A DNA stretch of 64,000 bases, taken from Thiogranum sp. (GTDB taxonomy: Bacteria > Pseudomonadota > Gammaproteobacteria > DSM-19610). The notes beneath the pieces are model-generated. The model searched no databases, was not told where the DNA came from, and saw only the letters and a list, made by a program, of their open reading frames with translations. Position 1 is the stretch's first letter, and the number at the start of each line of letters is the position of its first letter. Shown one piece after another: positions 14,142 to 31,567 of the stretch. The stretch is taken from NCBI GenBank assembly GCA_030148915.1, contig JASBSN010000013.1:8378-72377 (forward strand). The letters are read 5' to 3'. Made by a program: the position numbers and the translations under genes.

Positions 14142-14636
14142 GTGCAGATGATCGGTAATAGATATTCACTATGCTTCTTTTTGCCGATATCGGCTCTTCT
14201 CGCGCTCCTTGTCGCCACCGTTGCACAGGCGGGTCAATTGGTAGAGAAGCGCCCCCACCTCGTCGAGGTCTTCACCACGACTGAATTGCCTGTGGGCGGT
14301 GAGGTTGCTATCACCAGCGAGGCGACTCACGCGAAAACGGAAGTCCATGTCTATGAACTGGACGGCATCCAGCGTGTCGAGGCAAAGCTGTCTCAGGGCC
14401 TTTCGGCCGACCCCGAGCAATCCAAACAAGTCGTGCTGCAACGCTTTCAGCAACTGCATGAGGATGATCACGCACGAATGCAGCGTGCCGCGATGGGCCT
14501 GGCGAAGACGATGCAGTACGGTATCGACCGCTATCCAGCCGTCGTATTCGATGGTGAGGTCGCGATCTATGGCGTGACCGACATCGACGAAGCACTGCGT
14601 CGCTATCAACAGTGGCGGGAAGGCCAAATTCGATGA
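14142..14636 (+). CDS. TIGR03757/DUF1525 family ICE protein
   Basis: Signal peptide, VEVFTT, and AMGLAKTMQYGIDRYPAVVFD..YGVTD pattern; first gene of the canonical 03757-03756-03755-TraG block. Confidence 0.85.
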   Translation: MQMIGNRYSLCFFLPISALLALLVATVAQAGQLVEKRPHLVEVFTTTELPVGGEVAITSEATHAKTEVHVYELDGIQRVEAKLSQGLSADPEQSKQVVLQRFQQLHEDDHARMQRAAMGLAKTMQYGIDRYPAVVFDGEVAIYGVTDIDEALRRYQQWREGQIR

Positions 14637-15661
14637 CAGGGCGCAGGGTTCTATCACTTGCTTTGACCGCATTTCTGGCGATACCGTTGCCTGGAAAGGC
14701 GGGTTCCATCACGACACCGGAGATCGTAGCCAAGACGACGGCCGCGGCATTTGCCTGTATGCAGTGGATGCCCATCGGTACGTGTTTCTGGTTACGCTGT
14801 TCCTGGACCGGTTGCAGTGTCAGAACTTCACTCAAGGTTGGACATTACAACCCGGACCTGGTGGTCAGCAGTTACAACGAGCTGGGCGGAAATCCCTGGG
14901 TGGAGATCCGGGCGACGCTCGGCCTTGCCCAGAAGACGGCGGCCAACGGATTGCTCGGGTCGCTATTGCCGGTCCCCATCGACAGTGCCGGCAACCGCAC
15001 CGAAGGAACGTCCGGCAACCGTGATCACAAGAACATGATCTTCCGTGAGACGGATGCCATCGGCCATCCGCTCAGTTCGCTCTCCGGCATCGTCGCAGGC
15101 GTGGGCATGTTGTGCCAGACCGAGACGACGTCCTTCGTTCCCTATTTCCAGTCCGGGCTCGATGCGCTGTCCTGGCGTCAGGAAGTGCCGGAGACCTTCT
15201 ATCCCGCGAGTTTTATTCCGGGACTGCGCGAGATAGGCACCTGGCCATTGCAGACCTGGGGTGGGGTGTATCCACGCACCGGCTGGACCACGCAGGCTGA
15301 AGAGCCCAAGGCCGCGGCCATTAACGCCCAGCGCACCGGAGACATCGTGACCCGCACGGCGCAGCCGCACGTCTACGTTCCGGTCACCGCCTCGTCGTCT
15401 TCGACCCAGCGAGTGTGGTCGCCTGGACCGCTGATGGAGAAAGACCATCGCACCGGTACCTGGCAAATGCTGGTACCGCGTACCGAGACGAGCTGCGACG
15501 TGTTCGGTACCAATGACCTGGCGACACTGACGGGGTGGGGTGGCGGTCGGGTCGATAGCGAGGGCGACTACGTTTGGAACCTCTGGCGTCCCTACAAGTG
15601 TTGCCAGCGGCGCGGTCAGTGGTTCCTGTTCGACATCGACTGGATTTCCTACCCGCCATGA
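14633..15661 (+). CDS. TIGR03756 family ICE protein (TraU-like)
   Basis: CMQW..IGTCFWL.C, KVGHYNPDLVVSSY, WG.VYPR.GW and WNLWRPYKCC motifs; ATGA overlap with the upstream gene. Confidence 0.9.
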   Translation: MTGRRVLSLALTAFLAIPLPGKAGSITTPEIVAKTTAAAFACMQWMPIGTCFWLRCSWTGCSVRTSLKVGHYNPDLVVSSYNELGGNPWVEIRATLGLAQKTAANGLLGSLLPVPIDSAGNRTEGTSGNRDHKNMIFRETDAIGHPLSSLSGIVAGVGMLCQTETTSFVPYFQSGLDALSWRQEVPETFYPASFIPGLREIGTWPLQTWGGVYPRTGWTTQAEEPKAAAINAQRTGDIVTRTAQPHVYVPVTASSSSTQRVWSPGPLMEKDHRTGTWQMLVPRTETSCDVFGTNDLATLTGWGGGRVDSEGDYVWNLWRPYKCCQRRGQWFLFDIDWISYPP

Positions 15662-17043
15662 AGCACAAGCAAAGATACTCAATGGCCACGACACACCGAT
15701 CCACGCGGATCATTCCACGCAATGCCTTCGTGTTGCTGCTGATCGCGCTGTTGCTGTCGAAAAACGCATACGCCGCCAAGGCACCGACGGAAGACAGCCT
15801 ATGGTATTACGAGATCGGCGGCGCGGAGCCGGTGTCGGCGCCTGCCAATCCTTCGGTGGTCTCAGTCACCCTGGGTGGATCGGCGCAACTCGGTATCGGT
15901 TACAGCTGCGGCAAGTTCGATCCCGTCGCGGCGGTCACCAACACGTTGAACGACATCGGTGCCGGCGTCGACAACATGATGAACGCTATGACCGCCGCAG
16001 CGAGTGCCGCCATCGCGGCCCTGCCGGCACTCATTCTGCAACGAGCCAACCCCGGACTCTACGACATGTTCCAGAATGCGCTGTTGCAGGCCGAGGAGAC
16101 CATGCAACTCGCCACCAAGTCCTGCGAACAGATGGAAGCTGAGATCGCCAAGGGCAAAAATCCCTATGCCGATCTCATCACCTTGTCCAAGGGCAACGAC
16201 TGGAAACTTCAGATGGGTGTCGGCGGCAACGACGCCGTGACCGCGAAGACCGCGGTCGAGACATCCAACGGTGACAACGGTGTCCCATGGATCGGCGGTC
16301 AGGCCGGTGGCTCGGGGCAACCGGTGCTGGAGTTCACCGGCGACATCGTCAAGGCCGGTTACAACATCAACATGAACCGTCCCATCACAGCGGCGGGACC
16401 CGTGCCGCCGGCGTCGGCAACCCGGCTGTCCGAGGTCTGGGCCACACCCGCAGACGCCAGAGACTGGGTAGTGGACGTGGTGGGCGAGAACATCGTCACC
16501 ACGTGTGATACCTGCCGCAAGGACAGCATTCCCGGCACCGGCCTGCTGCCGAAGCTCTACCAGGAATCGAGCGCGGTGACGGTGGAGATTCAGAGTCTGG
16601 TCAGCGGCGCGACGCCGCCGACTCTGGCGAACCTGGAGAACATCACCGCGCCCGGTGTGGCCATTACGCGCCAGGTCATCGAGGCGATCCGGGAGATGCC
16701 GGCCTCCGAGCAGAGCCTGATCATGGGGCGGCTGGTCTCGGAAATCAGTACCGCGCGCACGGTGGAAAAGGCCTTGTTCGCCCGGCGACTGCTACTCACC
16801 GGTCGGCAGGTGCCGGAGGTCTATGCGACCGAAGTCGCCCGTGAGCATGCCGACACCTCCATTGCCGAGTTGGATAAGGAGATCGAGAACCTACTGTTCG
16901 AGACGCGGGTGCGCAAGGAAGTCGTCTCCGACACGGTGAGCATGTTGCTGCAACGCGCCGCCGCACGCCGCCAGTCATCCTTGAACACACCCACCGTGCC
17001 GACCATCGATCCGCGGCCTTTGAGCAATGGTCGTGTTCCGTAA
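15658..17043 (+). CDS. TIGR03755 family ICE protein
   Basis: YYEIGGAEPV, YSCGKFDP, ALILQRANPGLY, KSCEQME and GVPWIGG motifs. Confidence 0.9.
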   Translation: MKHKQRYSMATTHRSTRIIPRNAFVLLLIALLLSKNAYAAKAPTEDSLWYYEIGGAEPVSAPANPSVVSVTLGGSAQLGIGYSCGKFDPVAAVTNTLNDIGAGVDNMMNAMTAAASAAIAALPALILQRANPGLYDMFQNALLQAEETMQLATKSCEQMEAEIAKGKNPYADLITLSKGNDWKLQMGVGGNDAVTAKTAVETSNGDNGVPWIGGQAGGSGQPVLEFTGDIVKAGYNINMNRPITAAGPVPPASATRLSEVWATPADARDWVVDVVGENIVTTCDTCRKDSIPGTGLLPKLYQESSAVTVEIQSLVSGATPPTLANLENITAPGVAITRQVIEAIREMPASEQSLIMGRLVSEISTARTVEKALFARRLLLTGRQVPEVYATEVAREHADTSIAELDKEIENLLFETRVRKEVVSDTVSMLLQRAAARRQSSLNTPTVPTIDPRPLSNGRVP

Positions 17044-17053
17044 CGGCATTGCC

Positions 17054-17410
17054 ATGCGCCGGCGCTGGTTCGTGCTGCTGACGCTGTTGGTGTTCGGGCT
17101 GACGTTGGGCATCGGCGCCTTCCTCTGGCACGCCGTGCAAGCCTCGTCCGTCGTCGCGATCCAGAGCCGAATCGAGGTAATGAAGCCGGTCTTCACCGCG
17201 ATTCGGTTTCTGGTAATCGGCTTGGTCGTCCTGTCATGGCCGGTGGCTACGCGAGTGCTCCATCGATGGGGGCGTGTCGATGAGGCAGGTGCGACGCGAC
17301 TGCTGTCGCTGCGTTGGCGGGTCGTGACCTGGCTGCTCGTGGTCGAACTGCTGCTCGGCCAGAATCTCCTGAGCCATTTCGTTGCTGCATTGCAGGGGGA
17401 CAGGGCATGA
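17054..17410 (+). CDS. small membrane protein of the ICE core (precedes TraG_N)
   Basis: Three hydrophobic segments; stop overlaps the TraG start; conserved position in PFGI-1-type ICEs. Confidence 0.7.
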   Translation: MRRRWFVLLTLLVFGLTLGIGAFLWHAVQASSVVAIQSRIEVMKPVFTAIRFLVIGLVVLSWPVATRVLHRWGRVDEAGATRLLSLRWRVVTWLLVVELLLGQNLLSHFVAALQGDRA

Positions 17411-18972
17411 CGGTCGACAGCTATCTCGAGCTCTTCACCACGCTGTTCGGCTGGGCCTTCTATGGCATCCTCTGGGATGTGCTGGTGGGAACGGGCATCG
17501 TGTTCCTGCCTTTTCTCGGTATTCTAATCAATAACTGGCGGGAGCCTGCCGAAGGCGGCCAGTTCGGGACCGTCACCGGCCTGTCGTTGCGCCGAATGGA
17601 GATCGAACTGTTCATCGCGCTGCTGGTCGTGGTACTGGCCGGGCAGCCGGCCGCGCTGACGCCGCTCAACTCCGGCACCCTCAGCTACACACCACCGCCA
17701 ACTTTGATCGATCCCACGCCCGCCACCGCAACGGTTGGTGCGCCCCAGAGCACCTACGGCACCACCGGGTTCACCGGTTCGCCGGCGACGGTGAACATCC
17801 CGGTGTGGTGGTATGCGGTGCTGGCGATGACCTCGGGCTTGAACCACGCCGTGGTCGAAGGCCTGCCTTCGTCCGCCGATATGCGCACCTACGAACAACA
17901 GGCCCATCTGGCCACCATCGCCGATCCGCGCCTGCGGCAGGAAGCCAGTGACTTCTTCAGCCAGTGCTATATTCCGGCGCGCTCGAAATACCAAGCCGAG
18001 CGGCCGGCAACCGCCGCGGTCAATGCACTGTTGAGCACCTACGGACCGGACGATCCCGACTGGATGGGCTCGCACGTCTACCGCGACACGCCCGGTTTTT
18101 ACGACACGTTCCGGCCGGCCATGCAGATCTCGGGCTGGACCTATAATTCGGTGCGCGACACCGAATACGATCCCGCCGCGCCGCCCACGTGGGGCAAGCC
18201 CTACTGCAAACAATGGTGGGAAGACGGCACGATCGGATTGCGAGAGAAATTGATCAACGAGGCCGATGCGACATCCGCCGGATTCTCGGGTCTCGTGGTC
18301 GCCGTAGCGCCGGTGCTGGCAACCGAGAAGCAGAACGACGCCGTCGCCCGCACCGTGCTCACCAACTCCCCACCGAGTTGGTCCAACAACGATCTCGTGG
18401 CAAACAATTCCGGCAGTACCGGTCTGCTGAGCGCGGCCGAGAACTTCGTGAAAGGCGGTCTGGCCTCGGGCGGGGTGATCACCGCATCGGCCATGTTTTC
18501 GGTCACCATGACCGCTGTCCTGCAGGCACTACCCATGGTGCAGGCCGTGCTTCTGCTCGGCATCTACGCCTTGCTGCCCATGGTGGTGGTGTTGTCGCGT
18601 TACTCCCTCTCCATGATGGTCATCGGCGCCATGGCCATCTTCACCGTCAAGTTCTGGAGCGTGCTCTGGTACCTTGCGCTGTGGGTGGATCAGAACCTCA
18701 TCATGTCCATGTACCCGGACGTCAACATCTTCCTGCAGATTTTCGCCAATCCCGGCGAGCACGATATCAAACGCATGCTGCTCAACATGATCACGACCAG
18801 CCTCTATCTGGGCTTGCCGTTGTTGTGGAGCGGGATGATGGCGTGGGCGGGGGTGAAAGTCGGACGGTCGATCGATGCAGCTGCCAACCCGCTACGGGCT
18901 CCGGCTCAAGATGCCGGGAGCCAGGGCGGAAGCATTGGGAAGATGGCGGTTACGAAAGGAATAAAGCGTTAA
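17407..18972 (+). CDS. traG: conjugal transfer protein, TraG N-terminal domain
   Basis: DSYLELFTTLFGW, VPVWWY, F..QCY.PARSK and ALPMVQAVLL motifs. Confidence 0.88.
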   Translation: MTVDSYLELFTTLFGWAFYGILWDVLVGTGIVFLPFLGILINNWREPAEGGQFGTVTGLSLRRMEIELFIALLVVVLAGQPAALTPLNSGTLSYTPPPTLIDPTPATATVGAPQSTYGTTGFTGSPATVNIPVWWYAVLAMTSGLNHAVVEGLPSSADMRTYEQQAHLATIADPRLRQEASDFFSQCYIPARSKYQAERPATAAVNALLSTYGPDDPDWMGSHVYRDTPGFYDTFRPAMQISGWTYNSVRDTEYDPAAPPTWGKPYCKQWWEDGTIGLREKLINEADATSAGFSGLVVAVAPVLATEKQNDAVARTVLTNSPPSWSNNDLVANNSGSTGLLSAAENFVKGGLASGGVITASAMFSVTMTAVLQALPMVQAVLLLGIYALLPMVVVLSRYSLSMMVIGAMAIFTVKFWSVLWYLALWVDQNLIMSMYPDVNIFLQIFANPGEHDIKRMLLNMITTSLYLGLPLLWSGMMAWAGVKVGRSIDAAANPLRAPAQDAGSQGGSIGKMAVTKGIKR

Positions 18973-19378: not shown

Positions 19379-20143
19379 TCATGTGCCAAGGAACCGCTCC
19401 CGAAACGCTCGCCGGCCTTGGTCGTAAGGCGCCGGATTGGTGGCATGCGGGACCGGCGCACTTCTGTCGCCGATGAGGTAATTAATCCGATAAGTGCAGT
19501 TGCCCGATGGGTGCAGCATGCCACCGACCACCCGATCCGGCTTCAGAACACACTCCTGGATCAGACGGTCCAGCACCTTCTGGACTTGCGGCCCCAACCC
19601 GATGAATACGGCATCCCTCAGTTCTTCGACCTCCACCGCAAAGTTCTCCAGCAGGTATTGCCGCAGTAACGGGTGCTTGGTCATGTCCGGGGTGCCACGG
19701 TAATCGTTGTCCTTGACGAACACCGGATACCGCAGGAGGGATGTGGTCTGCACCAGGTGATGTGATCTGACGAATAGATCGGCCGAATCGCTCAGATCGA
19801 GCCACTGATGGAAGCCCCAATGATTGAGCTGATTGATCAGGTTGCTGCGCAGCGGCTCGCCACTGAAGGCGCCGACGCTCTTGGCGTCCCGGATCGCTTC
19901 CGCGCTGGATTTACCGGCCTGAAGCGCGCGCCGCGCTTCGTTGTTGGCGTTAACCATCTGTGTGGGGCCAGGCGTTATCCCGACCAGGACGATTCGTGCG
20001 CTCTGGTTGATGTACTCGAACGGCGCGTAGTAGATCTTCAAGTCACCGCTTGCGTCCATCAACAGTCGCGGGTCGCGCACCTCTGGAGGGTGCGCGTCAT
20101 CACATAGGACCGAAGCGTACTTCTCGATCAGACAGGTGTTCAC
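19379..20143 (-). CDS. uracil-DNA glycosylase superfamily-like protein
   Basis: IVLVGITPG (compare MUG ILFVGINPG), FIGLG strand and MLHPSG (UDG motif 2). GTG start overlaps the upstream TAG (TAGTG). Confidence 0.65.
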   Translation of the reverse strand: MNTCLIEKYASVLCDDAHPPEVRDPRLLMDASGDLKIYYAPFEYINQSARIVLVGITPGPTQMVNANNEARRALQAGKSSAEAIRDAKSVGAFSGEPLRSNLINQLNHWGFHQWLDLSDSADLFVRSHHLVQTTSLLRYPVFVKDNDYRGTPDMTKHPLLRQYLLENFAVEVEELRDAVFIGLGPQVQKVLDRLIQECVLKPDRVVGGMLHPSGNCTYRINYLIGDRSAPVPHATNPAPYDQGRRAFRERFLGT

Positions 20144-21864
20144 TATTGTACTTTTCCTTTGAAAGTCGCGCAGGTTGCGGCTGTCCCGACCGCAACCAGT
20201 AGAGACTTCGCCCTGCTCACCCCGACATAGAGCAACTCCTCGCTACGAGTCAAATCGATCGTATCCAGGCCCCATAGAATCACAATGGGGGACTCTAGCC
20301 CTTTGAAGCGCTGAATTGTGTCGATCAGGACCGTGTTGTTACTGCGAATGCCTTCCTCAAGCCAGGTTGTGGGCTTGGGCAACGGGAGTCTCCGCAAGGT
20401 TGCGTAGTAGTCGGCCTTGCGCAGAGCATCCGCAATCAAAACCGTAATGTCGCCGGCGGCGACACCCTGACGCGCGACAAGGTCAACGATCCGGGCGTTG
20501 ATCTTGGAGGCTTGGGCGTCGCGACCGGGCGACGCGTCGAACTGGACGTCGTCACCTTCAATATCGGGAGGACTGACCGGCACGCCTTTGTAGTGCTTAT
20601 ATGCAGCCAAATGAATGGGTGCGGTATTCCGGCAGTTCGTTGTCAGCGTGAAGGGCTCGTCACGTATTGGGAAGGTGCCTGCACGTGCGTATATATTCTG
20701 GTTGTCATCGTAGAAGACGTACAGCGGGCTGCGCTCGTAGTCGGAAAGTAGAAGTTCCAGGGGAACCCAGAACTCCTCGCGAAAGTCTTGCCCCTCATCA
20801 CACACAATTGCGTCATATCGGTCTGGTAGGACCTCAAGCGAATAGGCGAAAGCATTCGGTAGTTGTACGTCATAGAGATCTTTGCCCGGGTAAGTCACTT
20901 TGGCTTCAGCGACGAGGTCCCTGCCTGATGCCTGATTCGCTCTTTCGACTTGGCGATAGCAAAGCTGATGGAAACCCATCACGTCCAGGTTGGTCATCCC
21001 TGAACACAAGCTCGACAGGTGATCCGCGAGTTGTCGGTTGTAACAAGTAAGAAGCGTCTTGAACCCTTCTGAGGCTAGGCGGCGTGCCTTTTCTAGCGCA
21101 AGGACGGTTTTCCCAGTACCTGCACCACCGCTCACGGCGACCCTCCGATGTGAGCGCAGGAAATCAAGGACGCGAAGCTGGTCCTTCGTGAGCACCAATC
21201 GGCGTTCCTCCTGGTCGGCAAGGCGCGATGATACCAGTGGTGCAACGACGAATGATTTCGCGAATACCTCGCGGATCACTTCGACGCCGCGACGACCGAT
21301 AGGAGTTAAACTTCCTGCGTTGTTGCCCCAGTAAGTAAAGGCGCCGTCGATCCATTCCTTTGGGGCCTGTAGAGTGCTTGCTGAACCGATCAGGGCAGCA
21401 GGCATGTCCGGGCGACTTAGTGCGTTTGCGTCGCCAACATCAGGGAAAAATACAGCGTGGCCACGAAGCACATTCCTAAGGGCAAGACTGCGCCACCTTG
21501 GATGCTCATTCAGTTTTGAGCGAATCGAATACTTGGCCTTAAGGGCCTGACTGATAGGATTGTTGATGGGATTTTTCTGCTGATGGCGGTCCACCGAAAA
21601 CCATTCGCCGGTGGTTGCATCAAAACCTACGCCACCGCCTTTGACCTCTATGCACAGGTAGCCGTGATCAGGATGGCAAACCAAGAAGTCCGTTTCTCCA
21701 TCCTTCGCCTGCTCCTCTTCTCGCCGCAATATCCAACCGACTTGGAAGAAAACGACGTACTCCTGCGGAAGCTTATCTCTCAACGCGCGGTAGACCTTCG
21801 CTTCTGCTTGTGATGGCAGGTCGTTGAGTTGCGCCTTTGAAAGGTCAGGAATCATTGTCGTCAT
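20143..21864 (-). CDS. NERD nuclease domain fused to SF1 (UvrD-like) helicase
   Basis: NERD E.DFLV...LCIEVKGG; Walker A GGAGTGKT; Walker B VCDEGQD; TNCRNT, TIQRFKGLE and LYVGVSRAK helicase motifs. Confidence 0.9.
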   Translation of the reverse strand: MTTMIPDLSKAQLNDLPSQAEAKVYRALRDKLPQEYVVFFQVGWILRREEEQAKDGETDFLVCHPDHGYLCIEVKGGGVGFDATTGEWFSVDRHQQKNPINNPISQALKAKYSIRSKLNEHPRWRSLALRNVLRGHAVFFPDVGDANALSRPDMPAALIGSASTLQAPKEWIDGAFTYWGNNAGSLTPIGRRGVEVIREVFAKSFVVAPLVSSRLADQEERRLVLTKDQLRVLDFLRSHRRVAVSGGAGTGKTVLALEKARRLASEGFKTLLTCYNRQLADHLSSLCSGMTNLDVMGFHQLCYRQVERANQASGRDLVAEAKVTYPGKDLYDVQLPNAFAYSLEVLPDRYDAIVCDEGQDFREEFWVPLELLLSDYERSPLYVFYDDNQNIYARAGTFPIRDEPFTLTTNCRNTAPIHLAAYKHYKGVPVSPPDIEGDDVQFDASPGRDAQASKINARIVDLVARQGVAAGDITVLIADALRKADYYATLRRLPLPKPTTWLEEGIRSNNTVLIDTIQRFKGLESPIVILWGLDTIDLTRSEELLYVGVSRAKSLLVAVGTAATCATFKGKVQ

Positions 21865-24800
21865 CGGCATCTTCCAGAACACGCATGCGGAGCAAGTTCA
21901 GGGTCACGTTAGGCGTCGCCTGAGACTTCCCATCAAATAAGATCGTCAATAGCTTCGTGTTTCCGCGAGTGACAACATCCCGGATTTCCCCGGAACCCAT
22001 GTCGTGATGGTGAATCCGAGCTCCTGGGGAAAATAGCGATGAAGGATCTGCTCGCTCGTCCGTCGCTGCATCGCGCCAGTTGCCGTCAAACATGAACGCA
22101 GTTACTTGTGTCGCAGGGCTCCGGATGGGATGTACACGTATGTGCTCAGGATCAGAAACAAACTCAACCACATATAGCCAATAGCGGTCACCGTAGTCCT
22201 GAGCGTTGCTGAATTGGAGCCTTGAAAGGCCTACCCCGGTTTGGTTCCACTCGCCGTTTACGCCTTTTACTTCGATGAATCGATCCTCGCCGGTTACCGG
22301 GTTACGGCTGATGATGTCGTATCCAGGATGCGTTTGGGCCATCTGCTCTGCGATACGGCCTCGCTCTTTTTCATAGGCGCATACGGCGTCACGGGCGATA
22401 ACCTCGACGGCCAAGTTGTGCTCCGACAGGTCTTCCTGTTCACCAGCACCCGAAGAGTTTTCTTGCTTCCGTCGAACATAGGAAAGGAGGCGTCGGTCCC
22501 ATTGTTCTTTGTGCTTCGGGCGTGCTCTTTTCGGGCGACGATCGACTTGCTCTTTGTCTTTGCGGTTATCGACACCGGTTGCGGAACCATTCCGTTCGGT
22601 AGCGTCCTGGCGTGAGCCTCCTGAACCAGCTCCATGCCCGGTTTTCTCTGACGGCTCTGTTCCCGGGCGCGACCCTGGCTCTTCGGTTTGTTGATTCGGC
22701 TCTTTGCCGCCTAGGCCGGCTTCATGCTCGCCAGAAATCGCAACTGGGGTAGGCGCTGCCTCACTTTCCTCGTCGCTAGTTGGCTCCGTTGTTCCACCCA
22801 TTTCATCAAGTTTAGGTGACGTTAGATCTTCCGGGCTCCCGGATTCGGCATCTAGATAGGGAATGCCGGCGTCACTTAATTCGAGATGCGCCTCTTCGAT
22901 AGTGATTACCATCAGAGGGCGAATACTCAGCGTCAGCTTCGAGATTTCACTGCCTGATTCCTCGGGCATCAGTTGGTGGAAGAGCGCGTTCAGTACGTGC
23001 GACCAACTCCGGTCGCTTACAGGGCGCGCAAGGATTAGCCGCCCATTCTCAATGTCGTAGAACGCGTGGGCGGAGGCGGGTGGAGCAAATGTCCGATCTC
23101 CTCCGACTTGGACAGAAGCTTGTATGCGGACAGTGTCGTAGCTGACCGCCTTCAACTCCGATAGGGCCTTTCGGATCTTCTTTCGGACAGCGGTGGGCTT
23201 GTCGTGGAGTAGTCGTGCGAGAATGCTGATTCTCTCCATCAGCTTCTCAGCGAGCTGAGTCTCGTCGGCTTGCGGGCCATCTACGAACTCAAGGGTAACC
23301 TGCGCGCTCACACTAAGCCGCCGGACTCCTATCTCTTCCACAAGCGGCCAGAGTTCTGGCGCAGGCTTGCACAAGGCCTGATCGAGTTCCCCGCCAAAGA
23401 ATCCAGCATGCCACTCGCTATCCTGGAGCAAGACCTCATCGGGATGAGTCAACTGTCCCTGTAAATTCAGGATGGATGGCGCCTCCTGTAGACGTTTTAG
23501 GTCAGATGGGGTCAGTTCCTCTTGCTCATAGGCGGAAGACACGCCCGCCAGGCAGACGTCATAGACGGCGCGGTCGGGGCCAGTCACTGGCTTGGACTGT
23601 TCGAAATACTCCCCGACAATGTCCAAGAGTATGTCAACATAGTCTCGCCCTTCCGGCGTGTTCTTCACCCCGATCGCGTCAAAGAGCGGCTTGAATGACT
23701 CATAATTTCCCGGAATGGTGTAGGCGTAGCGGCCGAGCTGTTGCGGCATCCAGTACAGCTGATTAGGCCGAACGAATGTTTTCTGGCTTTCGACGTAGAT
23801 GCACCGTGATCCAGCGAGCGTGGTAATGAGTGTGTCTGAACGTTGAGCGCGCTCGTTCAAAACCTGATACGTAGAGACGTGAGGTTGTTCGCCCGTTGTG
23901 ATGCAATGTTGCAGATGGTTTATGACCAGCTGAGTCTCTGGATTGACGGATATATCAAGTTCTTCCAGCAATTCAGTTTCCAGCCGCACCGTGTTCCGGA
24001 AATCGAGAATATTGGCCTGGGAACGGAAAGCATCCGCGCGGTAGGGCGCATAGAGAGAGTCTGCTGTATACCACTCTTCTGTGTCCCCGACAGCAGGGAA
24101 GCAGGCAGCGTGCCGAAGCGCTGCGATGGCATCCTGAAACGATCTCTTTTCCTTCCATGCTTCGTAGTTGTCGCACAGGGTGTAAAATGCCTCGCCGCTC
24201 GCGCGCTTCGCATCCTCGGTCGGCTGGTATTTCTCAGCGATGGACAGCATGCGATCGACAAGATGCCTGGCGATCGGCGAGCGTCTGATTCCAAGGCTAT
24301 CGATAAATGTGTGTACTGATCGCGAATTGGGGATGCGGCTAGCGTCCAGCCAAAGGTGAAGTGAGTCACCGAGCACCTTCACAAGGTCATCGGTTCGGCG
24401 ATAAGTATTGACCGGGCGGGACCAGCCTCCATCTTGCGTAGGCACGATAGGAAACGATCCCAGTAGCCGACGAACGTCATCATCGTTAACAAGCGCTGGG
24501 TGATTAGCGAGCTCGCTGATGAGCCTTGTGTACTTCGTCACATCCAGAGGTCCACCGTCGTCGAAAAACGTCGGCAGGACCGTCTGCACAAACGCATCAA
24601 TCGTCTGCGTCTGGATCCCCAGCTTTGTCGATAGGAAATCCCTGGCTGATTCGGTGAGAACAGATGTATCCAGCAGATCCACCTGACCAGTCGGGTCCGT
24701 AAAGTCCCCGGGCAGAAGCGCTTCAGTTGCCTTAACAAGGCCACGGCTTGATTGCCATATGGGCAGGTCGCGCAGCTGCTGATAAACCGTCTTCTCGACG

Positions 24801-26629
24801 GCGCTTTGGTGGTCCAGGTCAGCGAACAGTGAGTACAGGTCGCGCAGGTCCTTCGGATCGACGCCGATGACCTCTTCGATCGGTTCGGTAGTGCACATCG
24901 AACAGACGTGAGAAACCACCGCGTGAAGATCGAGCAGCTTAATCAGCCGAGTGATCTTCGGGAACCCTGCGAGAAGACGTGAGGCAATCGCGAGTCTGGG
25001 CAGCAATGCTGCAATACGATCCGCATCCAGCCCGGCGGGCGCGGCGTAGGACTGGTTGATGGTTACCGCGAACAGATCCTCGGTGACAAGAAACGGCAAT
25101 GCCAGCAGACGCTGAATTGCAGGATTGGCGCTAGGGGTTGGTGTCCCAGATTCTGGAAGGAGGCCGTTGATGATGCTCCACATGGGCCGATAGAAATGCT
25201 CCAGCTTCTCTTCGTCGACTTCTGTCGCCCCAGCCACTTGCTGCGCCATCGCTGATTGCAGCAACCCTACCAAACGATCTAGCGTTAGGTCTTGGCCTCC
25301 CAATTGGATCATTGAATTCCGGAATGGTCGCAGGTCTTCTGTGACGAGCCGGCCACCGACCTCTAGAAGCGCCTTTGCCTGGTGTTCATTCAATGGACTG
25401 CGGGGGAGGAACACGCCGTTCGGACACTGAAGGCTGTCGTCCTGTGCCAGGGCGATATGCGATTGTGTCGCCGTGGTCTGCAATCGCTCCCAGAAACGCT
25501 TGTAACAAGGAGGATGGCCCGTCGGTTTGGACGACAGGTCGTATGCTCGGCCGAGTATCTGCCACAACTGGACGTGGCCGAGCATTTTCCGCAAGCCTTC
25601 GGGGTCGCGAGCGAGTTCTGCCGCAGCTGCGTCGATGAGCATCTCGTTCCATGCCTGCTCGTGCTGGTGTCCAGCAAATATCACGGCCTTGCGATCGGAC
25701 TCGGGGAAAAAGTCGGCGTTGATGTGCAGTGGTAGTCCCGTCAACTGCTCTGTCGGCAGAAATGCGTAGAGCAATCCCTCAGTAAGCGGCTCGGGGTCGA
25801 TTCGCAGACCTATGCTGATCTTGGTGCTGCGATGAAGGGATTCCAGTCTGGGGTGTGTCGCATAGAGGCGGTTGGCGGCATCGGCGGCGTCAGCGCGAAG
25901 GATGTGCCAGTGCTCAACCTCGCCGCTTGGCCGGAAGCTGACGATGAGGTCGGAGCCTTCGCTTCGGTCGAGGTCGCAGGCCAGCAGGAGTTGGCCATTG
26001 CGCCGTACCTCAGCCGTTCGAACATGGCGGAGAAACAGCAGACTCTTGCGCAGAACGGTCTGAAAATCTCTGGCGAGCTGTTCGATATGGGCCGGGCTGA
26101 CATGGGAGATCCCAAGCGCCAGACGCGCCTCAGAGTTAGGGTCGTCCGCCCACGGAAGAAAGAAAGACGTACCGCTGGGCTCGTCAAAAGGTTCGATGAA
26201 CCATTGCCCCTGCTCGGGGTGAAGGGTCAGTTTGATGCCCGACGAGCGGATCTCGGGGTGGTCAGTAACTTGGTAGGTCGAGACGAAGCCAATGCCAAAG
26301 CGCCCGATGTTCTCACCACGTGAGAGTTTTCCGCCGCTGCCTACGTCTGCGATGCGATGGTAATCGCAACTGTAGTTGTTTGTGGCGATGAAGCCGCAAG
26401 GTCGTGAATGAAGATCACCGCAGTAGGTGAACAGGCCGCTGTTGCACACCAGAAGGCCGTGATCCGTGATGTCGAAAACTATCCGCTCGGCCACGGCGTC
26501 GTCCGCATTCTGGATGAGCTCGAGCGCCATCACGTCGTAACCCTGCAGCCCGGCCAGGTGGCTTCGGATGTTGCCGAGAAGGTTTGCGGTGTACGAGCCG
26601 CTTAGCCTGGTTGGGGCTGCCTGATCCAT
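21845..26629 (-). CDS. sacsin-like GHKL ATPase with C-terminal DUF3883 (NOV-C, PD-(D/E)XK) nuclease and a Tudor/SH3-like tail
   Basis: ELIQNADDA, GRFGIGFVS and LPLHINADF sacsin motifs; GYDIIS...RFIEVKG...LSRLQ DUF3883 motifs; AGGAG RBS before MDQAAP. Confidence 0.85.
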   Translation of the reverse strand: MDQAAPTRLSGSYTANLLGNIRSHLAGLQGYDVMALELIQNADDAVAERIVFDITDHGLLVCNSGLFTYCGDLHSRPCGFIATNNYSCDYHRIADVGSGGKLSRGENIGRFGIGFVSTYQVTDHPEIRSSGIKLTLHPEQGQWFIEPFDEPSGTSFFLPWADDPNSEARLALGISHVSPAHIEQLARDFQTVLRKSLLFLRHVRTAEVRRNGQLLLACDLDRSEGSDLIVSFRPSGEVEHWHILRADAADAANRLYATHPRLESLHRSTKISIGLRIDPEPLTEGLLYAFLPTEQLTGLPLHINADFFPESDRKAVIFAGHQHEQAWNEMLIDAAAAELARDPEGLRKMLGHVQLWQILGRAYDLSSKPTGHPPCYKRFWERLQTTATQSHIALAQDDSLQCPNGVFLPRSPLNEHQAKALLEVGGRLVTEDLRPFRNSMIQLGGQDLTLDRLVGLLQSAMAQQVAGATEVDEEKLEHFYRPMWSIINGLLPESGTPTPSANPAIQRLLALPFLVTEDLFAVTINQSYAAPAGLDADRIAALLPRLAIASRLLAGFPKITRLIKLLDLHAVVSHVCSMCTTEPIEEVIGVDPKDLRDLYSLFADLDHQSAVEKTVYQQLRDLPIWQSSRGLVKATEALLPGDFTDPTGQVDLLDTSVLTESARDFLSTKLGIQTQTIDAFVQTVLPTFFDDGGPLDVTKYTRLISELANHPALVNDDDVRRLLGSFPIVPTQDGGWSRPVNTYRRTDDLVKVLGDSLHLWLDASRIPNSRSVHTFIDSLGIRRSPIARHLVDRMLSIAEKYQPTEDAKRASGEAFYTLCDNYEAWKEKRSFQDAIAALRHAACFPAVGDTEEWYTADSLYAPYRADAFRSQANILDFRNTVRLETELLEELDISVNPETQLVINHLQHCITTGEQPHVSTYQVLNERAQRSDTLITTLAGSRCIYVESQKTFVRPNQLYWMPQQLGRYAYTIPGNYESFKPLFDAIGVKNTPEGRDYVDILLDIVGEYFEQSKPVTGPDRAVYDVCLAGVSSAYEQEELTPSDLKRLQEAPSILNLQGQLTHPDEVLLQDSEWHAGFFGGELDQALCKPAPELWPLVEEIGVRRLSVSAQVTLEFVDGPQADETQLAEKLMERISILARLLHDKPTAVRKKIRKALSELKAVSYDTVRIQASVQVGGDRTFAPPASAHAFYDIENGRLILARPVSDRSWSHVLNALFHQLMPEESGSEISKLTLSIRPLMVITIEEAHLELSDAGIPYLDAESGSPEDLTSPKLDEMGGTTEPTSDEESEAAPTPVAISGEHEAGLGGKEPNQQTEEPGSRPGTEPSEKTGHGAGSGGSRQDATERNGSATGVDNRKDKEQVDRRPKRARPKHKEQWDRRLLSYVRRKQENSSGAGEQEDLSEHNLAVEVIARDAVCAYEKERGRIAEQMAQTHPGYDIISRNPVTGEDRFIEVKGVNGEWNQTGVGLSRLQFSNAQDYGDRYWLYVVEFVSDPEHIRVHPIRSPATQVTAFMFDGNWRDAATDERADPSSLFSPGARIHHHDMGSGEIRDVVTRGNTKLLTILFDGKSQATPNVTLNLLRMRVLEDADDDNDS

Positions 26630-26717
26630 TCGTGCTCCTGGGCTTCTCAAAGACGGGCTTTATTGGTTGAAGTTGATTGCGTCCATCAGCGTCCCAATCG
26701 CTTCACATTGCTCGCAG

Positions 26718-27095
26718 TTAACGAGTCTGAACAGACTTGTTGTTCGGATGTTCGCTGTCGGAAAGCTCTTTTGCCGTCCCCAGTAATTGTTCAATGCTCT
26801 GGGGCGTCAGTCCGGCCTCTTTGATGTATCGAATCAGATTCATGGCTTCTGGATTCTCGTGGAGGTAATCAACGATCTCCGGGTCCGTGGATGAGGAAAG
26901 CCGGAAAAGGACATCGGGATCGGCGGCGAGTGTTTTTGCCAACGCCTTGATAATCTCGGGACTTGGCGGGCGTTCTTTGCCGCGCTCAATGCGGCTAAGG
27001 TAGGCCGGTGATATTCCGACCAAACCTGCAGTTTCGCGCAGGCCCAAGTCTTGGGCGGTACGCAAATCCCGAATAGTCTCGCCAAACGCCTTCAT
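26718..27095 (-). CDS. XRE-family helix-turn-helix regulator
   Basis: FGETIRDLR...LRETA..VGISPAYLSRIERG..PPS pattern. Confidence 0.9.
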   Translation of the reverse strand: MKAFGETIRDLRTAQDLGLRETAGLVGISPAYLSRIERGKERPPSPEIIKALAKTLAADPDVLFRLSSSTDPEIVDYLHENPEAMNLIRYIKEAGLTPQSIEQLLGTAKELSDSEHPNNKSVQTR

Positions 27096-27479: not shown

Positions 27480-29549
27480 ATGGGAAAGAATAAGAAACAG
27501 GCGGAGAACACAATCGCTGCAGGATATACGCTCGACTATGTCTCCGGAGAACCAATTAAGGAAACCAAGAAAGAGCTGGTACGCCAGCGGGTCGCTCGTG
27601 CCCTGATCCATGAGTACGGCTTTTCACCGGAAGACATGGAGCTGGATTTCTCAATCGGTGGGCGCAAGAAGGTGGACGTCGCCATTTTTCATCATGGCGA
27701 GGAGCACACGATTGAAAACATAAGTCGCGCTGCGATCTGCCGGCCTGAGCCCAATGTCGGTAAGAACGCCGTGCGTATACGGGACTTTGATCAGGCTGCG
27801 AAGGACCTGGATGAACTTGAGAGCATCATGCAAGAGGTCGAGGCCATTAAGTACGGGTTATGGACAAACGGGCTCGAGTTTTTTTTCCTCGAGAAGGAAA
27901 AAAAGCGTTTCGAAACCAAGTGCAACCCGATAGGTGATTGGCCGATGGCAGAAGAGTCTGTCGGCACCAAAGAGGTCTTTTCCGATGCGCACACCCGTGT
28001 CGCTGACAACGAGATGCTCAAAATTACCTTTCGCCGCTGCCATAACTTCATCCATGGCAATGAGGGCATGCCGAAGGATGCAGCTTTCTGGCAGTTCCTG
28101 TATCTCATCTTCTGCAAAATGCATGACGAGAATCTACGCGCTAAACAGCGCAAAGCCTGGAAGCGCCGCTTTTGGGCTGGCCCTAAGGAACAGTTCGATC
28201 CTAAGGGGCGTAAGGAGATACGTGGGCGGATTGAGGAGCTTTTTACCGAAGTCAAAAAACAATACAAGAATATCTTTCGCGGTAACGAGGAAATAACCCT
28301 GTCCGACCGGGCGCTAGCTTTTATTGTATCCGAGCTGGCCAAATACGATTTCACCCGCACTGATGTGGATGCCAAGGGCGTCGCCTATCAGGAACTGGTG
28401 GGCGTCAATCTACGTGGCGACCGAGGCCAATACTTTACACCACGGGGAGTGGTGAAGCTTGTCGTGGAAATGCTCGATCCCAAAGAGAATGAAACACTGC
28501 TGGACCCTGCATGTGGCACCGGCGGTTTCCTGGTTGCCACGCTTGCTCATATGTTGAAGAAATTCCGGGATGAGCAGGATACATCGCCTGGCGATGAGAC
28601 CAGTACCGAATTCCTGAATGTTCATGAACGCTTGAAAGAGTACGCGGCCGCTAACGTCTTCGGGGCCGACTTCGATCCGTTCTTGATCCGCGCCGCACAG
28701 ATGAACATGGTGCTGGCGGGTGATGGCCGTGGTCACATCTACAACATCAACTCGCTTGAATTCCCCCTGGGGCACTTGGCAGACCTGACAAATGCCAAAA
28801 AAGAAATTCCACTCGGCTCGGTCGATATCATCGCCACCAATCCTCCATTTGGTTCGGACATCCCGATTACCGACAAGCACATCCTAGAGCAGTATGAACT
28901 GGCCCATAACTGGGAATCGGACGGGGAAGGTGGTTTCCGCAACACTGGCGTTTCTAAAGGCAGCGTCGCACCCGAGATTCTCTTCATCGAGCGCTGTATC
29001 AAATGGTTGAAACCAGGCGCTGGACGCATGGGTATCGTCTTGCCTGATGGTGTTTTGGGGAACCCGGCAGCGGAGTACATCCGTTGGTGGATTATGCGCG
29101 AAACGCAGGTGCTTGCCTCCGTCGATCTGCCAGTGGAGGCTTTTATCGCCGAAGCCAATGTCAACATCCTCACCAGCCTGCTGTTTCTGCGTCGCAAGAG
29201 TGACCAAGAAAAACGCGCGGAGGTATTAGGCGGCATTGAGGAGTACCCAGTCTTCATGGCGGTGGCGGACAAGGTTGGTTTCGACCGTCGTGGCAACAAG
29301 CTATACAAGCGCACGCCCGATGGTGAAGAAATCGTCGAACCTCGTCAGCATGAAGAAAAGTTCAGAATTAAGGGCGAGTGGGTTAAGCGGGTTCTTACAC
29401 GTAAAGAGAAGGTTGAAGATAACGACTTGCCTGTCATCGCTGAAAAGTACCGAGAATTTCTTGCAGAACTTGATGGATTGACACCTGCCAAGAAGAAATC
29501 ACCGGGTAGGGCGAAAGGGTCGGCCAACAAGAAGGTGGCGGTGCGATGA
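27480..29549 (+). CDS. N6-adenine DNA methyltransferase with N-terminal HsdR_N-like domain (MAD2-like, copy 1)
   Basis: RGQYFTP, LDPACGTGGFL (motif I), NPPF (motif IV, 28839-28850) and GIVLPDGVL. Confidence 0.9.
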   Translation: MGKNKKQAENTIAAGYTLDYVSGEPIKETKKELVRQRVARALIHEYGFSPEDMELDFSIGGRKKVDVAIFHHGEEHTIENISRAAICRPEPNVGKNAVRIRDFDQAAKDLDELESIMQEVEAIKYGLWTNGLEFFFLEKEKKRFETKCNPIGDWPMAEESVGTKEVFSDAHTRVADNEMLKITFRRCHNFIHGNEGMPKDAAFWQFLYLIFCKMHDENLRAKQRKAWKRRFWAGPKEQFDPKGRKEIRGRIEELFTEVKKQYKNIFRGNEEITLSDRALAFIVSELAKYDFTRTDVDAKGVAYQELVGVNLRGDRGQYFTPRGVVKLVVEMLDPKENETLLDPACGTGGFLVATLAHMLKKFRDEQDTSPGDETSTEFLNVHERLKEYAAANVFGADFDPFLIRAAQMNMVLAGDGRGHIYNINSLEFPLGHLADLTNAKKEIPLGSVDIIATNPPFGSDIPITDKHILEQYELAHNWESDGEGGFRNTGVSKGSVAPEILFIERCIKWLKPGAGRMGIVLPDGVLGNPAAEYIRWWIMRETQVLASVDLPVEAFIAEANVNILTSLLFLRRKSDQEKRAEVLGGIEEYPVFMAVADKVGFDRRGNKLYKRTPDGEEIVEPRQHEEKFRIKGEWVKRVLTRKEKVEDNDLPVIAEKYREFLAELDGLTPAKKKSPGRAKGSANKKVAVR

Positions 29550-31567
29550 ACGATCGAATTGATGACGTCAATGATGATCAGCAGGATGCTGCCGAAGAGA
29601 GCGGCTCCGATAATTTTTTCATCGACATTCTGACCGGCAACAAGGAGAGCGCCTCGGCCAAGAAGCTGCTGGTGCAGAAGGTTCTGCGTCAACTCATCGA
29701 GAGCTACGGCTTTGACCGGGACGATCTGGAGGTCAACTATAACCCCCAGATCCCCGGCCAGGGGCGCAAGCGCATTGACATCGCGATTTTCCGTCCCGAT
29801 GCCGAGCACAACAACGACAACCTGCAGCGGATTATCGTCTGCAAGAATCAGAAGAAGCGCGACAAGCTTCGTTCCATTACCGAGGCCGACGCCGACCTGC
29901 GTGAGCTCAAGGAGCTGCTGGAGCTGATCCCCGGCGCGACGCTGGGCATGTGGACAAACGGCCAGGAAGAGTTCCTGTTCCAGGTCGAGCGCACCCGCTT
30001 CGAGGTCCGGCCCAAGCCGCTGGGTGTGTGGCCGGTTCCTGGTGAACGTACCACCGATCTCGACCGCACGGGCGGTGTCATTCAGGTTAGCGCCGAAGCG
30101 GAGGATCTGGAAGACGCCCTGCTGCGCTGCCGTCAGTATCTGAACCGCAACCTGGGACTCGATCACAAGGATTCCTTCAAGCAGTTGGCCGTGCTGATGC
30201 TGGCCAAGATCCACGATGAGACCCTGCCCACCGGCGAGCGCAAATTCTGGATCAGGGGCGACGAGCCATTCACCGAGGTCGGCCAACAGGCCATTGCCCA
30301 GCGCATCAACGAATCCATTACCGCTGCCAAGGCCTGGCAGCCGAACCTGCTGACCCGTGGTTGGGATCTGACGCTGGAACCTCTCGAGACCGCACGCGTG
30401 GTGATGGAGCTGGCCCGTTACTCTCTGAGTGAAACCCAACCTCGTTTCCGTACTGGGGCCTTCCGTGCGGTCTCCCGCAGCGTGATGGACGGCCGTGAGG
30501 GCCGTTATCCCACACCGCTCAACGTGGCCGAAATGGCAGTGGATATGCTCGACCCACAACCCGGCGAACGCATCATGGACTGCTCCAGCGGCACCGGCAC
30601 CTTCCTGGCCATGACCGCCACACACATCTTCAAGAAAAAACTGGCGGCCATGGGCACCACGCCTGAAGAGCCCACCAACGAACAGATCCGCCAGGCGCAA
30701 AACGAAACCGCTGCTTGGGCGGCCAGCAACGCCTTGGGTTGCGACATCGATCCCTTCCTGGCCGTCGCCAGCCGGATGAATCTGCTGTTCACCACTGGCA
30801 ACCCGGGCCGCGTGTTCCGCATCGATGCCCGCACGTTCCCGGACGGTGATCTGGATGGCATCGAGGCGGCACGCCTGGCCATGCCACTGGGCAGCATGGA
30901 TGTGGTTCTGCTCAACCCCTGGTTCTCCACCCAAGAGACGGTGAGCGACACCTCCATTCTGGAGCGCTACGACCTGGGCAACAACTGGGAGCGCGACGAG
31001 GAAGGCGGATTCCGCAACACCGGCAATCTGAACGCCGGCGGCGTGCCGCCCGAGGTGCTGTTTATCGAGCGCGCCCTGCAATGGGTGAAGCCCGGCACCG
31101 GCCGCGTGGGCATCCTGTTGCCCGATGGCTTGCTGGGCAATCCCGGCGATGAGTACGTGCGCTGGTGGATTCTGCGCCACTGCGAGGTCTTGGCCTCGGT
31201 TGACCTGCCGGTGGAGCCGTTCAAGGTCACGGTCAAGGAATATGGCCTGACGCCCGCCTTGCCCAGTCTCCTGGTACTGCGCCGCCGCAGCCAGGAGGAG
31301 CTCATCAATACCGAGCACCCGGAATACAAGGTCTTCATGGCCGTGGTGGACCGGGCCGGTGTCGACGCCCGGGGAAATCTCCTGTTCCAGCGAGCCCCCG
31401 ATGGAGAGGAACTGGTTTTCGATGAGGAGGTGATCGAGCGGGTTCGAGAAGGTGGTGAAGTGGAAATCCGTCGGACTACACGCCGCAACCGCCGCGTTCA
31501 TGACGAGCTGCCGCTGGTGGCAGCGAAATACAAGGAATTTCGCGCAACCGGCGAGGTGACGTTATGA
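29546..31567 (+). CDS. second HsdM-like methyltransferase paralog with altered catalytic motif (MAD2-like, copy 2)
   Basis: GRYPTP, MDCSSGTGTFL, NPWF (30914-30925) and GILLPDGLLGNP; shares GGFRNTG and PE.LFIER blocks with copy 1. Confidence 0.85.
   Translation: MNDRIDDVNDDQQDAAEESGSDNFFIDILTGNKESASAKKLLVQKVLRQLIESYGFDRDDLEVNYNPQIPGQGRKRIDIAIFRPDAEHNNDNLQRIIVCKNQKKRDKLRSITEADADLRELKELLELIPGATLGMWTNGQEEFLFQVERTRFEVRPKPLGVWPVPGERTTDLDRTGGVIQVSAEAEDLEDALLRCRQYLNRNLGLDHKDSFKQLAVLMLAKIHDETLPTGERKFWIRGDEPFTEVGQQAIAQRINESITAAKAWQPNLLTRGWDLTLEPLETARVVMELARYSLSETQPRFRTGAFRAVSRSVMDGREGRYPTPLNVAEMAVDMLDPQPGERIMDCSSGTGTFLAMTATHIFKKKLAAMGTTPEEPTNEQIRQAQNETAAWAASNALGCDIDPFLAVASRMNLLFTTGNPGRVFRIDARTFPDGDLDGIEAARLAMPLGSMDVVLLNPWFSTQETVSDTSILERYDLGNNWERDEEGGFRNTGNLNAGGVPPEVLFIERALQWVKPGTGRVGILLPDGLLGNPGDEYVRWWILRHCEVLASVDLPVEPFKVTVKEYGLTPALPSLLVLRRRSQEELINTEHPEYKVFMAVVDRAGVDARGNLLFQRAPDGEELVFDEEVIERVREGGEVEIRRTTRRNRRVHDELPLVAAKYKEFRATGEVTL

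Follow-up and report, generated by a model that had tools for sequence, protein, structure and literature searches.

The UDG-like gene that closes a three-gene operon in the window, i.e., in the complete stretch of 64,000 nucleotides of Thiogranum DNA analyzed here, should encode, with a probability of about one-half, an autonomous and mobile Brig-like defense glycosylase that represents a distinct clade and was captured by a Type I-G Tiamat operon. A self-contained glycosylase module would spread horizontally within defense islands and, in the Thiogranum lineage, would have joined the Tiamat operon at its 3' end, where it would be translationally coupled. The evidence consists of a UDG fold, conserved motifs of the active-site type, an accessory and mobile distribution of the gene, and its repeated placement behind different defense cassettes. 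Glycosylases with a UDG fold have reportedly been recognized as a class of anti-phage effectors only between 2024 and 2026, with Brig1, Brig2, and Brig3, each of them directed against a different modified base. If active, the UDG-like protein would add a new specificity to this effector class and would provide a marker gene for defense islands. The positions of all features are listed in Table 1.

Table 1. Positions of the UDG-like gene, its neighbors in the window, and elements at homologous loci
Feature	Sequence	Position	Strand	Description
TraU and TraG_N conjugation genes	Window	14612-18972	+	Flank the defense island
UDG-like gene	Window	19379-20143	-	254 aa; GTG start; listed ORF with translation
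Gene junction	Window	20141-20160	-	One-base overlap of the helicase stop TAG (20145-20143) and the GTG start (20143-20141)
Purine-rich stretch AAAGGAAAAG	Window	20160-20151		Ahead of the GTG start
NERD + UvrD-type SF1 helicase	Window	20143-21882	-	579 aa; Pfam NERD 3.8e-10, UvrD_C_2 2.8e-9, UvrD-helicase 4.6e-7; PADLOC RTasNERD-Hel 1.1e-66
TmtA (Tiamat)	Window	21845-26650	-	1601 aa; sacsin/GHL ATPase N-terminus, NOV_C (DUF3883) nuclease region, C-terminal extension; PADLOC PDLC03969 2245.6 bits over 9-1591; Pfam SACS 1.5e-18, NOV_C 2.9e-18
XRE-type HTH regulator	Window	26718-27095	-	125 aa; Pfam HTH_31 3.9e-15; PADLOC capH 2.9e-13
MADS-type system, full	Window	27480-44255	+	Two mad2-like N6-methyltransferases, mad5 (specificity subunit), mad6 (NERD+kinase, 1383 aa), mad7, mad8-like (1818 aa)
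Short pAgo + TIR-APAZ, SPARTA-type pair	Window	44468-47390	+	pAgo class I 6.6e-203; TIR-APAZ 9e-115
rve transposase	Window	47584-48687		Closes the island near 48 kb
169-aa ORF	L009	9445-9954		Cys-rich (CxxC...CxC), without known domain
169-aa ORF	L007	2989-3495		As above
Conserved 3' stretch	L009	10763-10985		Non-coding, about 215 nt
SRAP gene	L042	9177-9902		Abasic-site crosslinking, HMCES/YedK family
Gene cluster	L069	2067-6452		On Ralstonia mannitolilytica plasmid pRMAN01

Sequence motifs, fold, and superfamily membership

The ORF of the UDG-like protein is a genuine conserved gene. In a 90%-clustered database, 473 homologues were found at E<=1e-3, every one of them annotated as "hypothetical," and the start position is kept among the homologues. 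An exhaustive profile search gave 1,620 clusters (50% identity) at the same threshold, 427 of them below 1e-30, so the family is large; only some distant relatives reach the Pfam UDG model.

Motif A, G55-I-T57-P-G59, is located within ARIVLVGITPGPTQM, with Q62 beyond it, and motif B, H211-P-S-G-N215, within GGMLHPSGNCTYR; the motif A stretch IVLVGITPGPTQM is likewise present in the protein. The sequence F93-S-G95...R99 follows downstream of motif A, and S135 and P140 are positioned on or past strand 2 of the predicted fold. The motifs VLVGITPG and LHPSG, which the first-pass annotation had taken as signs of a UDG-superfamily protein, were both found in the 254-aa translation. Its statement that the protein possesses neither the GQDPY of family 1 nor the Cys cluster of family 4 agrees with the sequence and with the family alignments. 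GITPG occurs instead of GQDPY, the water-activating loop of family-1 UNG, and the GE(A/G)PG and GLAPG motifs of the family-4 and family-5 Fe-S UDGs are likewise missing from the protein. It contains four cysteines (C4, C14, C198, and C216), and the family alignments include no invariant or nearly invariant Cys column, which separates the protein from these Fe-S families.

Among 56 relatives with 31-59% identity, the residues P41, A49, T57, G59, F93, G95, R99, G184, H211, and R219 are invariant, and G55 of motif A is nearly so. Judged from these alignments, the clade signature is G-[IVL]-T-P-G..Q / F-S-G..R / H-P-S-G-[NA]-N, with the invariant Thr in motif A as its putative hallmark.

The window protein itself gave no match in Pfam, even at E<=10, and none in NCBIfam or PADLOC. 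With 32 homologues as input, AlphaFold2 produced a model with a pLDDT of 95.1 and a pTM of 0.90. The model shows an alpha/beta fold whose four-stranded sheet is parallel (predicted strands 51-55, 131-135, 179-183, and 205-209), in which GITPG directly follows strand 1 and HPS directly follows strand 4. These are the places of the UDG motifs A and B in the canonical UDG families 1-6 (UNG, MUG/TDG, SMUG1, the family-4/5 Fe-S UDGs, and HDG). In a Foldseek search against the PDB, ranks 1-28 were all chains of the UDG superfamily (SMUG1, family-4 UDG, and UdgX), and TDG appeared at rank 38; the scores were weak (E 2e-3 to 8e-2, TM 0.35-0.52), though the probability was as high as 0.99. Phage UDGs were among the top matches in BFVD, the viral fold library, with a probability of 0.99.

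Evidence from the relatives is in line with the model. PF03167, the Pfam UDG family, was matched by 34 of the 56 relatives, with a best E of 2.6e-7, and one relative, P0162, exceeds the gathering cut-off. The hhalign comparison of the family with a canonical UDG profile was weak (E 0.005), and against the canonical UDGs of the host, profile-profile comparison yielded motif alignments that were collinear but weak. The structure prediction and fold search that had been proposed as a check sustain the assignment to the UDG superfamily: the top matches in both fold libraries are UDGs. The protein is a divergent member of the superfamily and would belong to a distinct clade that has no name. An identity from a sequence match in the PDB was rejected, since searches there returned chance matches only, whether started from the protein alone, from the family profile, or from a distant member. 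ARPP, a protein of the ARG-centric systems (Iyer et al. 2022, PMC9503650), was also dismissed as an identity because its fold is beta-rich. Domain fusions of distant relatives were also uninformative, with one fusion to GGACT/AIG2 and other extensions without a known domain.

Putative active site and relation to the Brig glycosylases

The catalytic position in motif A is occupied by Asp in UNG, by Glu in family 4, and by Asn in MUG, SMUG, and Brig1. In the UDG-like protein, T57 would replace this water-positioning residue. F93 would be the base-stacking aromatic residue, in an F-S-G context that is comparable to A-F-S of UNG and P-F-x-G of family 4, H211 would be the leaving-group histidine, and N215 would correspond to the wedge position, which in UNG lies within HPSPL. 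Beyond the motifs already mentioned as missing and the Thr at the catalytic position, the protein differs from the canonical UDGs by a helical insertion (residues 60-91, about 30 in all) that separates motif A from the stacking Phe, and by a gene that is accessory and mobile, not core.

A Thr at this position could mean weak or no hydrolysis. Family-5 UDGs are active with Ala at the same position, and Thr may therefore be compatible with catalysis. It is very unlikely that the protein is a catalytically dead reader or a decoy with a UDG fold, for instance for phage Ugi-like inhibitors, which would bind without cutting. A Thr at a position that is Asp, Glu, or Asn in every well-studied active family but family 5 would fit such a protein, and so would a window sequence that stays below the Pfam UDG threshold. 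The residues of the putative pocket, T57, F93, H211, R99, and R219, are nevertheless invariant, as expected of an enzyme, and the activity of family 5 also argues against a loss of catalysis.

Like Brig1, Brig2, and Brig3, a defense glycosylase of this kind would flip a non-canonical base of the invading DNA into its pocket and would cut the N-glycosidic bond of this base, and the resulting abasic sites would block phage replication. The His of motif B stabilizes the O2 leaving group of pyrimidines; the substrate is probably a modified pyrimidine because this His is invariant in the family. The uracil-reading Asn of UNG appears to be replaced by Ser or Thr.

Brig1 is an alpha-glucosyl-5hmC DNA glycosylase of the UDG superfamily that protects against T-even phages, and its family was delimited by PSI-BLAST (PMC11078745). 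With the Brig1 sequence given in the supplement of this publication, BLASTP returned an E of 0.34 over 10 residues only, and hhalign gave probabilities of 0.8-1.9%, covering 31 columns with the profile of 32 sequences and 15 columns with that of 56 sequences, in the motif A region. Membership in the Brig1 family was rejected at the sequence level because no similarity beyond motif A was detectable by either method. The suggested analogy to Brig1 thus holds for the fold and for the kinds of neighboring genes and fails for sequence kinship. Both proteins comprise a single domain of about 250-260 aa with a UDG fold, structure searches likewise return family-4 and SMUG-type UDGs, the form of motif A is similar (LVVLGLNPG in Brig1, IVLVGITPG here), and both are "hypothetical protein" entries in the databases. 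The neighbors of the Brig1 homologues, and of Brig1 and Brig3 taken together, include ADP-ribosylglycohydrolase (ARH), NERD, DUF3883, and Wadjet (PMC11078745, supplement 3; bioRxiv 10.64898/2026.02.25.707755), and neighbors of the same kinds occur in the UDG-like family. Differences are Asn in motif A of Brig1 and Thr in that of the UDG-like protein, the HPS motif B in the latter, and the taxonomic range, which is mostly proteobacterial for the UDG-like family and actinobacterial for the Brig1 family. By eye, N145-F-E147 of Brig1 aligns with T-S135-L-L, so the cytosine-reading Glu of Brig1 is probably not kept.

Brig2 and Brig3 likewise belong to the UDG superfamily and are defense glycosylases encoded in operons or islands. 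Modified thymidines are the substrates of Brig2 (bioRxiv 10.1101/2025.10.29.685425), whose homologues are spread over similar taxa (Pseudomonadota, Bacillota); five accessions of the UDG-like family were absent from the part of the Brig2 supplementary tables that was searched. Brig3 excises 5hmC, uses N225 as its wedge, and is encoded in a brig3-bapA operon that adjoins an ARH gene (bioRxiv 10.64898/2026.02.25.707755). Its N50-P-S...E55 parallels T57-P-G...Q62 of the UDG-like protein, in which N215 is likewise an Asn at the wedge position of motif B. An ARH gene is located immediately upstream of a pair formed by a 169-aa ORF and the UDG-like gene in six loci. In the window, no BapA-like gene adjoins the UDG-like gene, which is a difference from Brig3. 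The UDG-like family may be a branch of the Brig2 or the Brig3 family, both of which were compared by description only.

Third gene of a Type I-G Tiamat operon

The UDG-like gene is the last of three in the order TmtA, NERD+UvrD helicase, UDG-like gene. As the first-pass annotation had claimed, its setting is a defense operon, with TmtA and the helicase directly upstream on the same strand. The two upstream genes correspond to Type I-G Tiamat, which is described as a two-gene system of TmtA and a NERD helicase, with a TmtA C-terminus predicted to recruit this helicase; a glycosylase is nowhere mentioned in that preprint (bioRxiv 10.64898/2026.09.30.754977). The window agrees with this type in possessing TmtA with the NERD helicase next door and differs by the third gene, which is present in about 16% of related loci. 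The junction of the last two genes and the purine-rich stretch AAAGGAAAAG ahead of the GTG start suggest translational coupling of the UDG-like gene to the helicase gene. The same abutting junction, with an overlap of 1-4 nt, occurs in five other loci (L007, L011, L013, L016, and L028). The XRE-type regulator gene upstream of TmtA is divergent from the MADS operon, and its product could serve either system.

Two censuses were used to evaluate how tightly the gene is tied to Tiamat. The forward census comprised 63 species-level loci encoding the UDG-like protein, and only the five loci named above carry TmtA and the helicase upstream. The reverse census started from the NERD helicase and comprised 80 metagenome loci that encode close relatives of it. 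TmtA was next to the helicase in all of those with enough upstream sequence. Of the 76 Tiamat I-G loci whose downstream sequence spans 150 nt or more, 12 contain the UDG-like gene: 6 among the 56 with 800 nt or more and 6 among the 20 with 150-800 nt. Since few helicase loci carry it, the gene is an optional add-on to Tiamat, and an obligate third Tiamat gene is ruled out. The description as "embedded" in a defense operon applies to its place at the end of the operon and its overlapping start, and not to a role as an obligate part of the system.

These data also bear on the explanation that the protein is an integral third subunit of Tiamat I-G without an independent function, in which a sensor of modified bases or lesions, or a nick-maker, licenses the NERD helicase and the Tiamat nuclease. 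The one-base overlap of stop and start codon and the junction kept in five other species would be expected from such a subunit. Moreover, a single subclade of the tree (support 86/96) holds five of the six Tiamat-linked copies, which were therefore inherited together with the cassette. This explanation is nevertheless distinctly unlikely, considering the small share of Tiamat I-G loci that carry the gene and the published two-gene composition. Near-identical copies also occur behind Wadjet or ARH cassettes or with only the 169-aa partner. In addition, the TmtA-helicase pair of L007 separates the 169-aa ORF from the UDG-like gene, apparently after insertion of this Tiamat cassette into an older module made up of these two genes.

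Improbable as well is a coupled system of "base-excision restriction" formed by the UDG-like enzyme and Type I-G Tiamat. The glycosylase would recognize a phage-specific modified base and would produce abasic sites or nicks, at which the NERD/UvrD helicase would load and feed single strands to the Tiamat nuclease. Base excision would then supply the discrimination between self and non-self that Tiamat I-G, because it has no methyltransferase, otherwise does not possess. Also for an autonomous glycosylase captured by the operon, abasic sites or nicks could, speculatively, serve as entry points for the NERD helicase and the Tiamat ssDNase. The Tiamat-linked copies are a simple test case for the cooperation of a glycosylase with a helicase-nuclease system.

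Other systems accompany the operon in the window. A full MADS-type system is followed directly by the SPARTA-type pair, which lies ahead of the rve transposase gene, and the G+C content falls across the island. TonB-dependent receptor and cobyrinic-acid amidotransferase-like genes are located left of TraU and TraG_N. The defense island is probably the cargo of an integrative conjugative element or of a remnant thereof. A conserved backbone gene of such an element beside TraG was considered and rejected: except for the cassette, no gene of the element or island in the window recurs near the homologues.

Mobility of the gene and contexts of the homologues

Elsewhere in its genome, the host encodes four canonical PF03167 proteins, which are by their motifs of the family-4, the family-5, the GQAPG/HPSPRN, and the MUG-like type. 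The family-4 and family-5 proteins among them show the Cys ligands and the GE(A/G)PG/GLAPG features. The UDG-like gene was absent from all 24 genomes of the same genus and all 16 of the same class that were searched. A housekeeping role is unlikely because the host possesses four canonical UDGs and these 40 relatives do without the gene. Distribution and context together argue, short of proof, for an accessory, conflict-related role.

Copies with 85-88% amino acid identity, and with 91-95% DNA identity over about 1.5 kb, are present in Gamma-, Beta-, and Alphaproteobacteria, in genera including Pseudomonas, Dokdonella, Undibacterium, Comamonas, Cellvibrio, Marinospirillum, and Methylocaldum. 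Plasmids carry the family in 29 records, and none was found among 50,697 phage records.

The cassettes upstream of the UDG-like gene differ, so that the family is repeatedly wired behind unrelated systems such as Tiamat I-G, Wadjet, and ARH/WYL. Wadjet JetC-JetD precede the gene in five loci, a 646-aa ARH in four, and another TmtA type together with an ARH in two; a PsyrT-like helicase with a WYL regulator represents a further upstream cassette. In the clade of at least 78% identity, TmtA, JetCD, or PsyrT was encoded within 10 kb in 16 of the 29 loci, and ARH and/or WYL in three more. None of the six defense proteins of the panel was found near members of the more distant clade, a count that is a lower bound only because the panel is narrow. 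The partners of distant homologues were an HTH protein of about 330 aa (seven loci), DUF3228, DUF7673, an HD domain, and a VRR-NUC nuclease. Ordinary chromosomal settings also occur: the homologue in L002-L004 is positioned between metF and ahcY with DUF3228 upstream, and that in L001 amid metabolic genes.

Such non-defense contexts of some homologues would agree with a repair glycosylase for uracil, hypoxanthine, or another lesion that travels as cargo, for example in order to protect the DNA of the mobile element, and is no anti-phage effector. The protein shares the His of motif B and the stacking Phe with families that excise uracil, and weak uracil activity is retained by Brig1 (PMC11078745) and Brig3 (bioRxiv 10.64898/2026.02.25.707755). 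An SRAP gene directly upstream of the homologue in L042 would fit a repair setting too; this pairing would also be sensible if the UDG-like protein creates abasic sites. A repair enzyme as cargo is nevertheless unlikely in view of the four canonical enzymes already in the host, the 40 of 40 relatives without the gene, the patchy distribution with recent transfer, and the enrichment beside defense cassettes. In the comparison of the motifs, the probable replacement of the uracil-reading Asn by Ser or Thr and of the catalytic Asp, Glu, or Asn by Thr also speaks against it.

Several smaller elements accompany the gene. In 11 loci, the 169-aa ORF is located upstream of the UDG-like gene at a distance of 42-46 nt (46 nt in ten of the 11), with a WYL regulator farther upstream. 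It may be a functional partner of the UDG-like gene; the ORF and the WYL regulator are both absent from the window. Truncated copies are recurrent and retain the conserved 3' element described below. In L046-L050, L052, L056, and L062, only the C-terminal half (residues about 130-252) is present, at 75-81% identity. These remnants occur in Stutzerimonas, Pseudomonas, Parapusillimonas, and Nitrosomonas and in the plasmid hits H5 and H6; the plasmid-borne remnants adjoin a LysR regulator.

The non-coding stretch that immediately follows the UDG-like gene on its 3' side is conserved to 90-95% between genera. Besides L009, it occurs in L006-L008, L011-L015, L017-L019, L023, and L052, and it is absent from the window. 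It contains a T-loop-like GGTTCAATTCC and ends sharply at GGTTCCACCCCACCACCA, followed by a locus-specific terminator. No Rfam family, tRNA, or tmRNA matched this stretch, and RNAalifold placed 64 pairs in it with almost no covariation. The stretch may represent a structured RNA, or else the terminus of a mobile unit. On the Ralstonia plasmid, about 2.5 kb from a homologue of 85% identity, a cluster of genes for a DNA cytosine methyltransferase, a nucleoside 2-deoxyribosyltransferase, a phage Gp37/Gp68-family protein, and a PAPS-reductase-family protein may represent a DNA-modification module.
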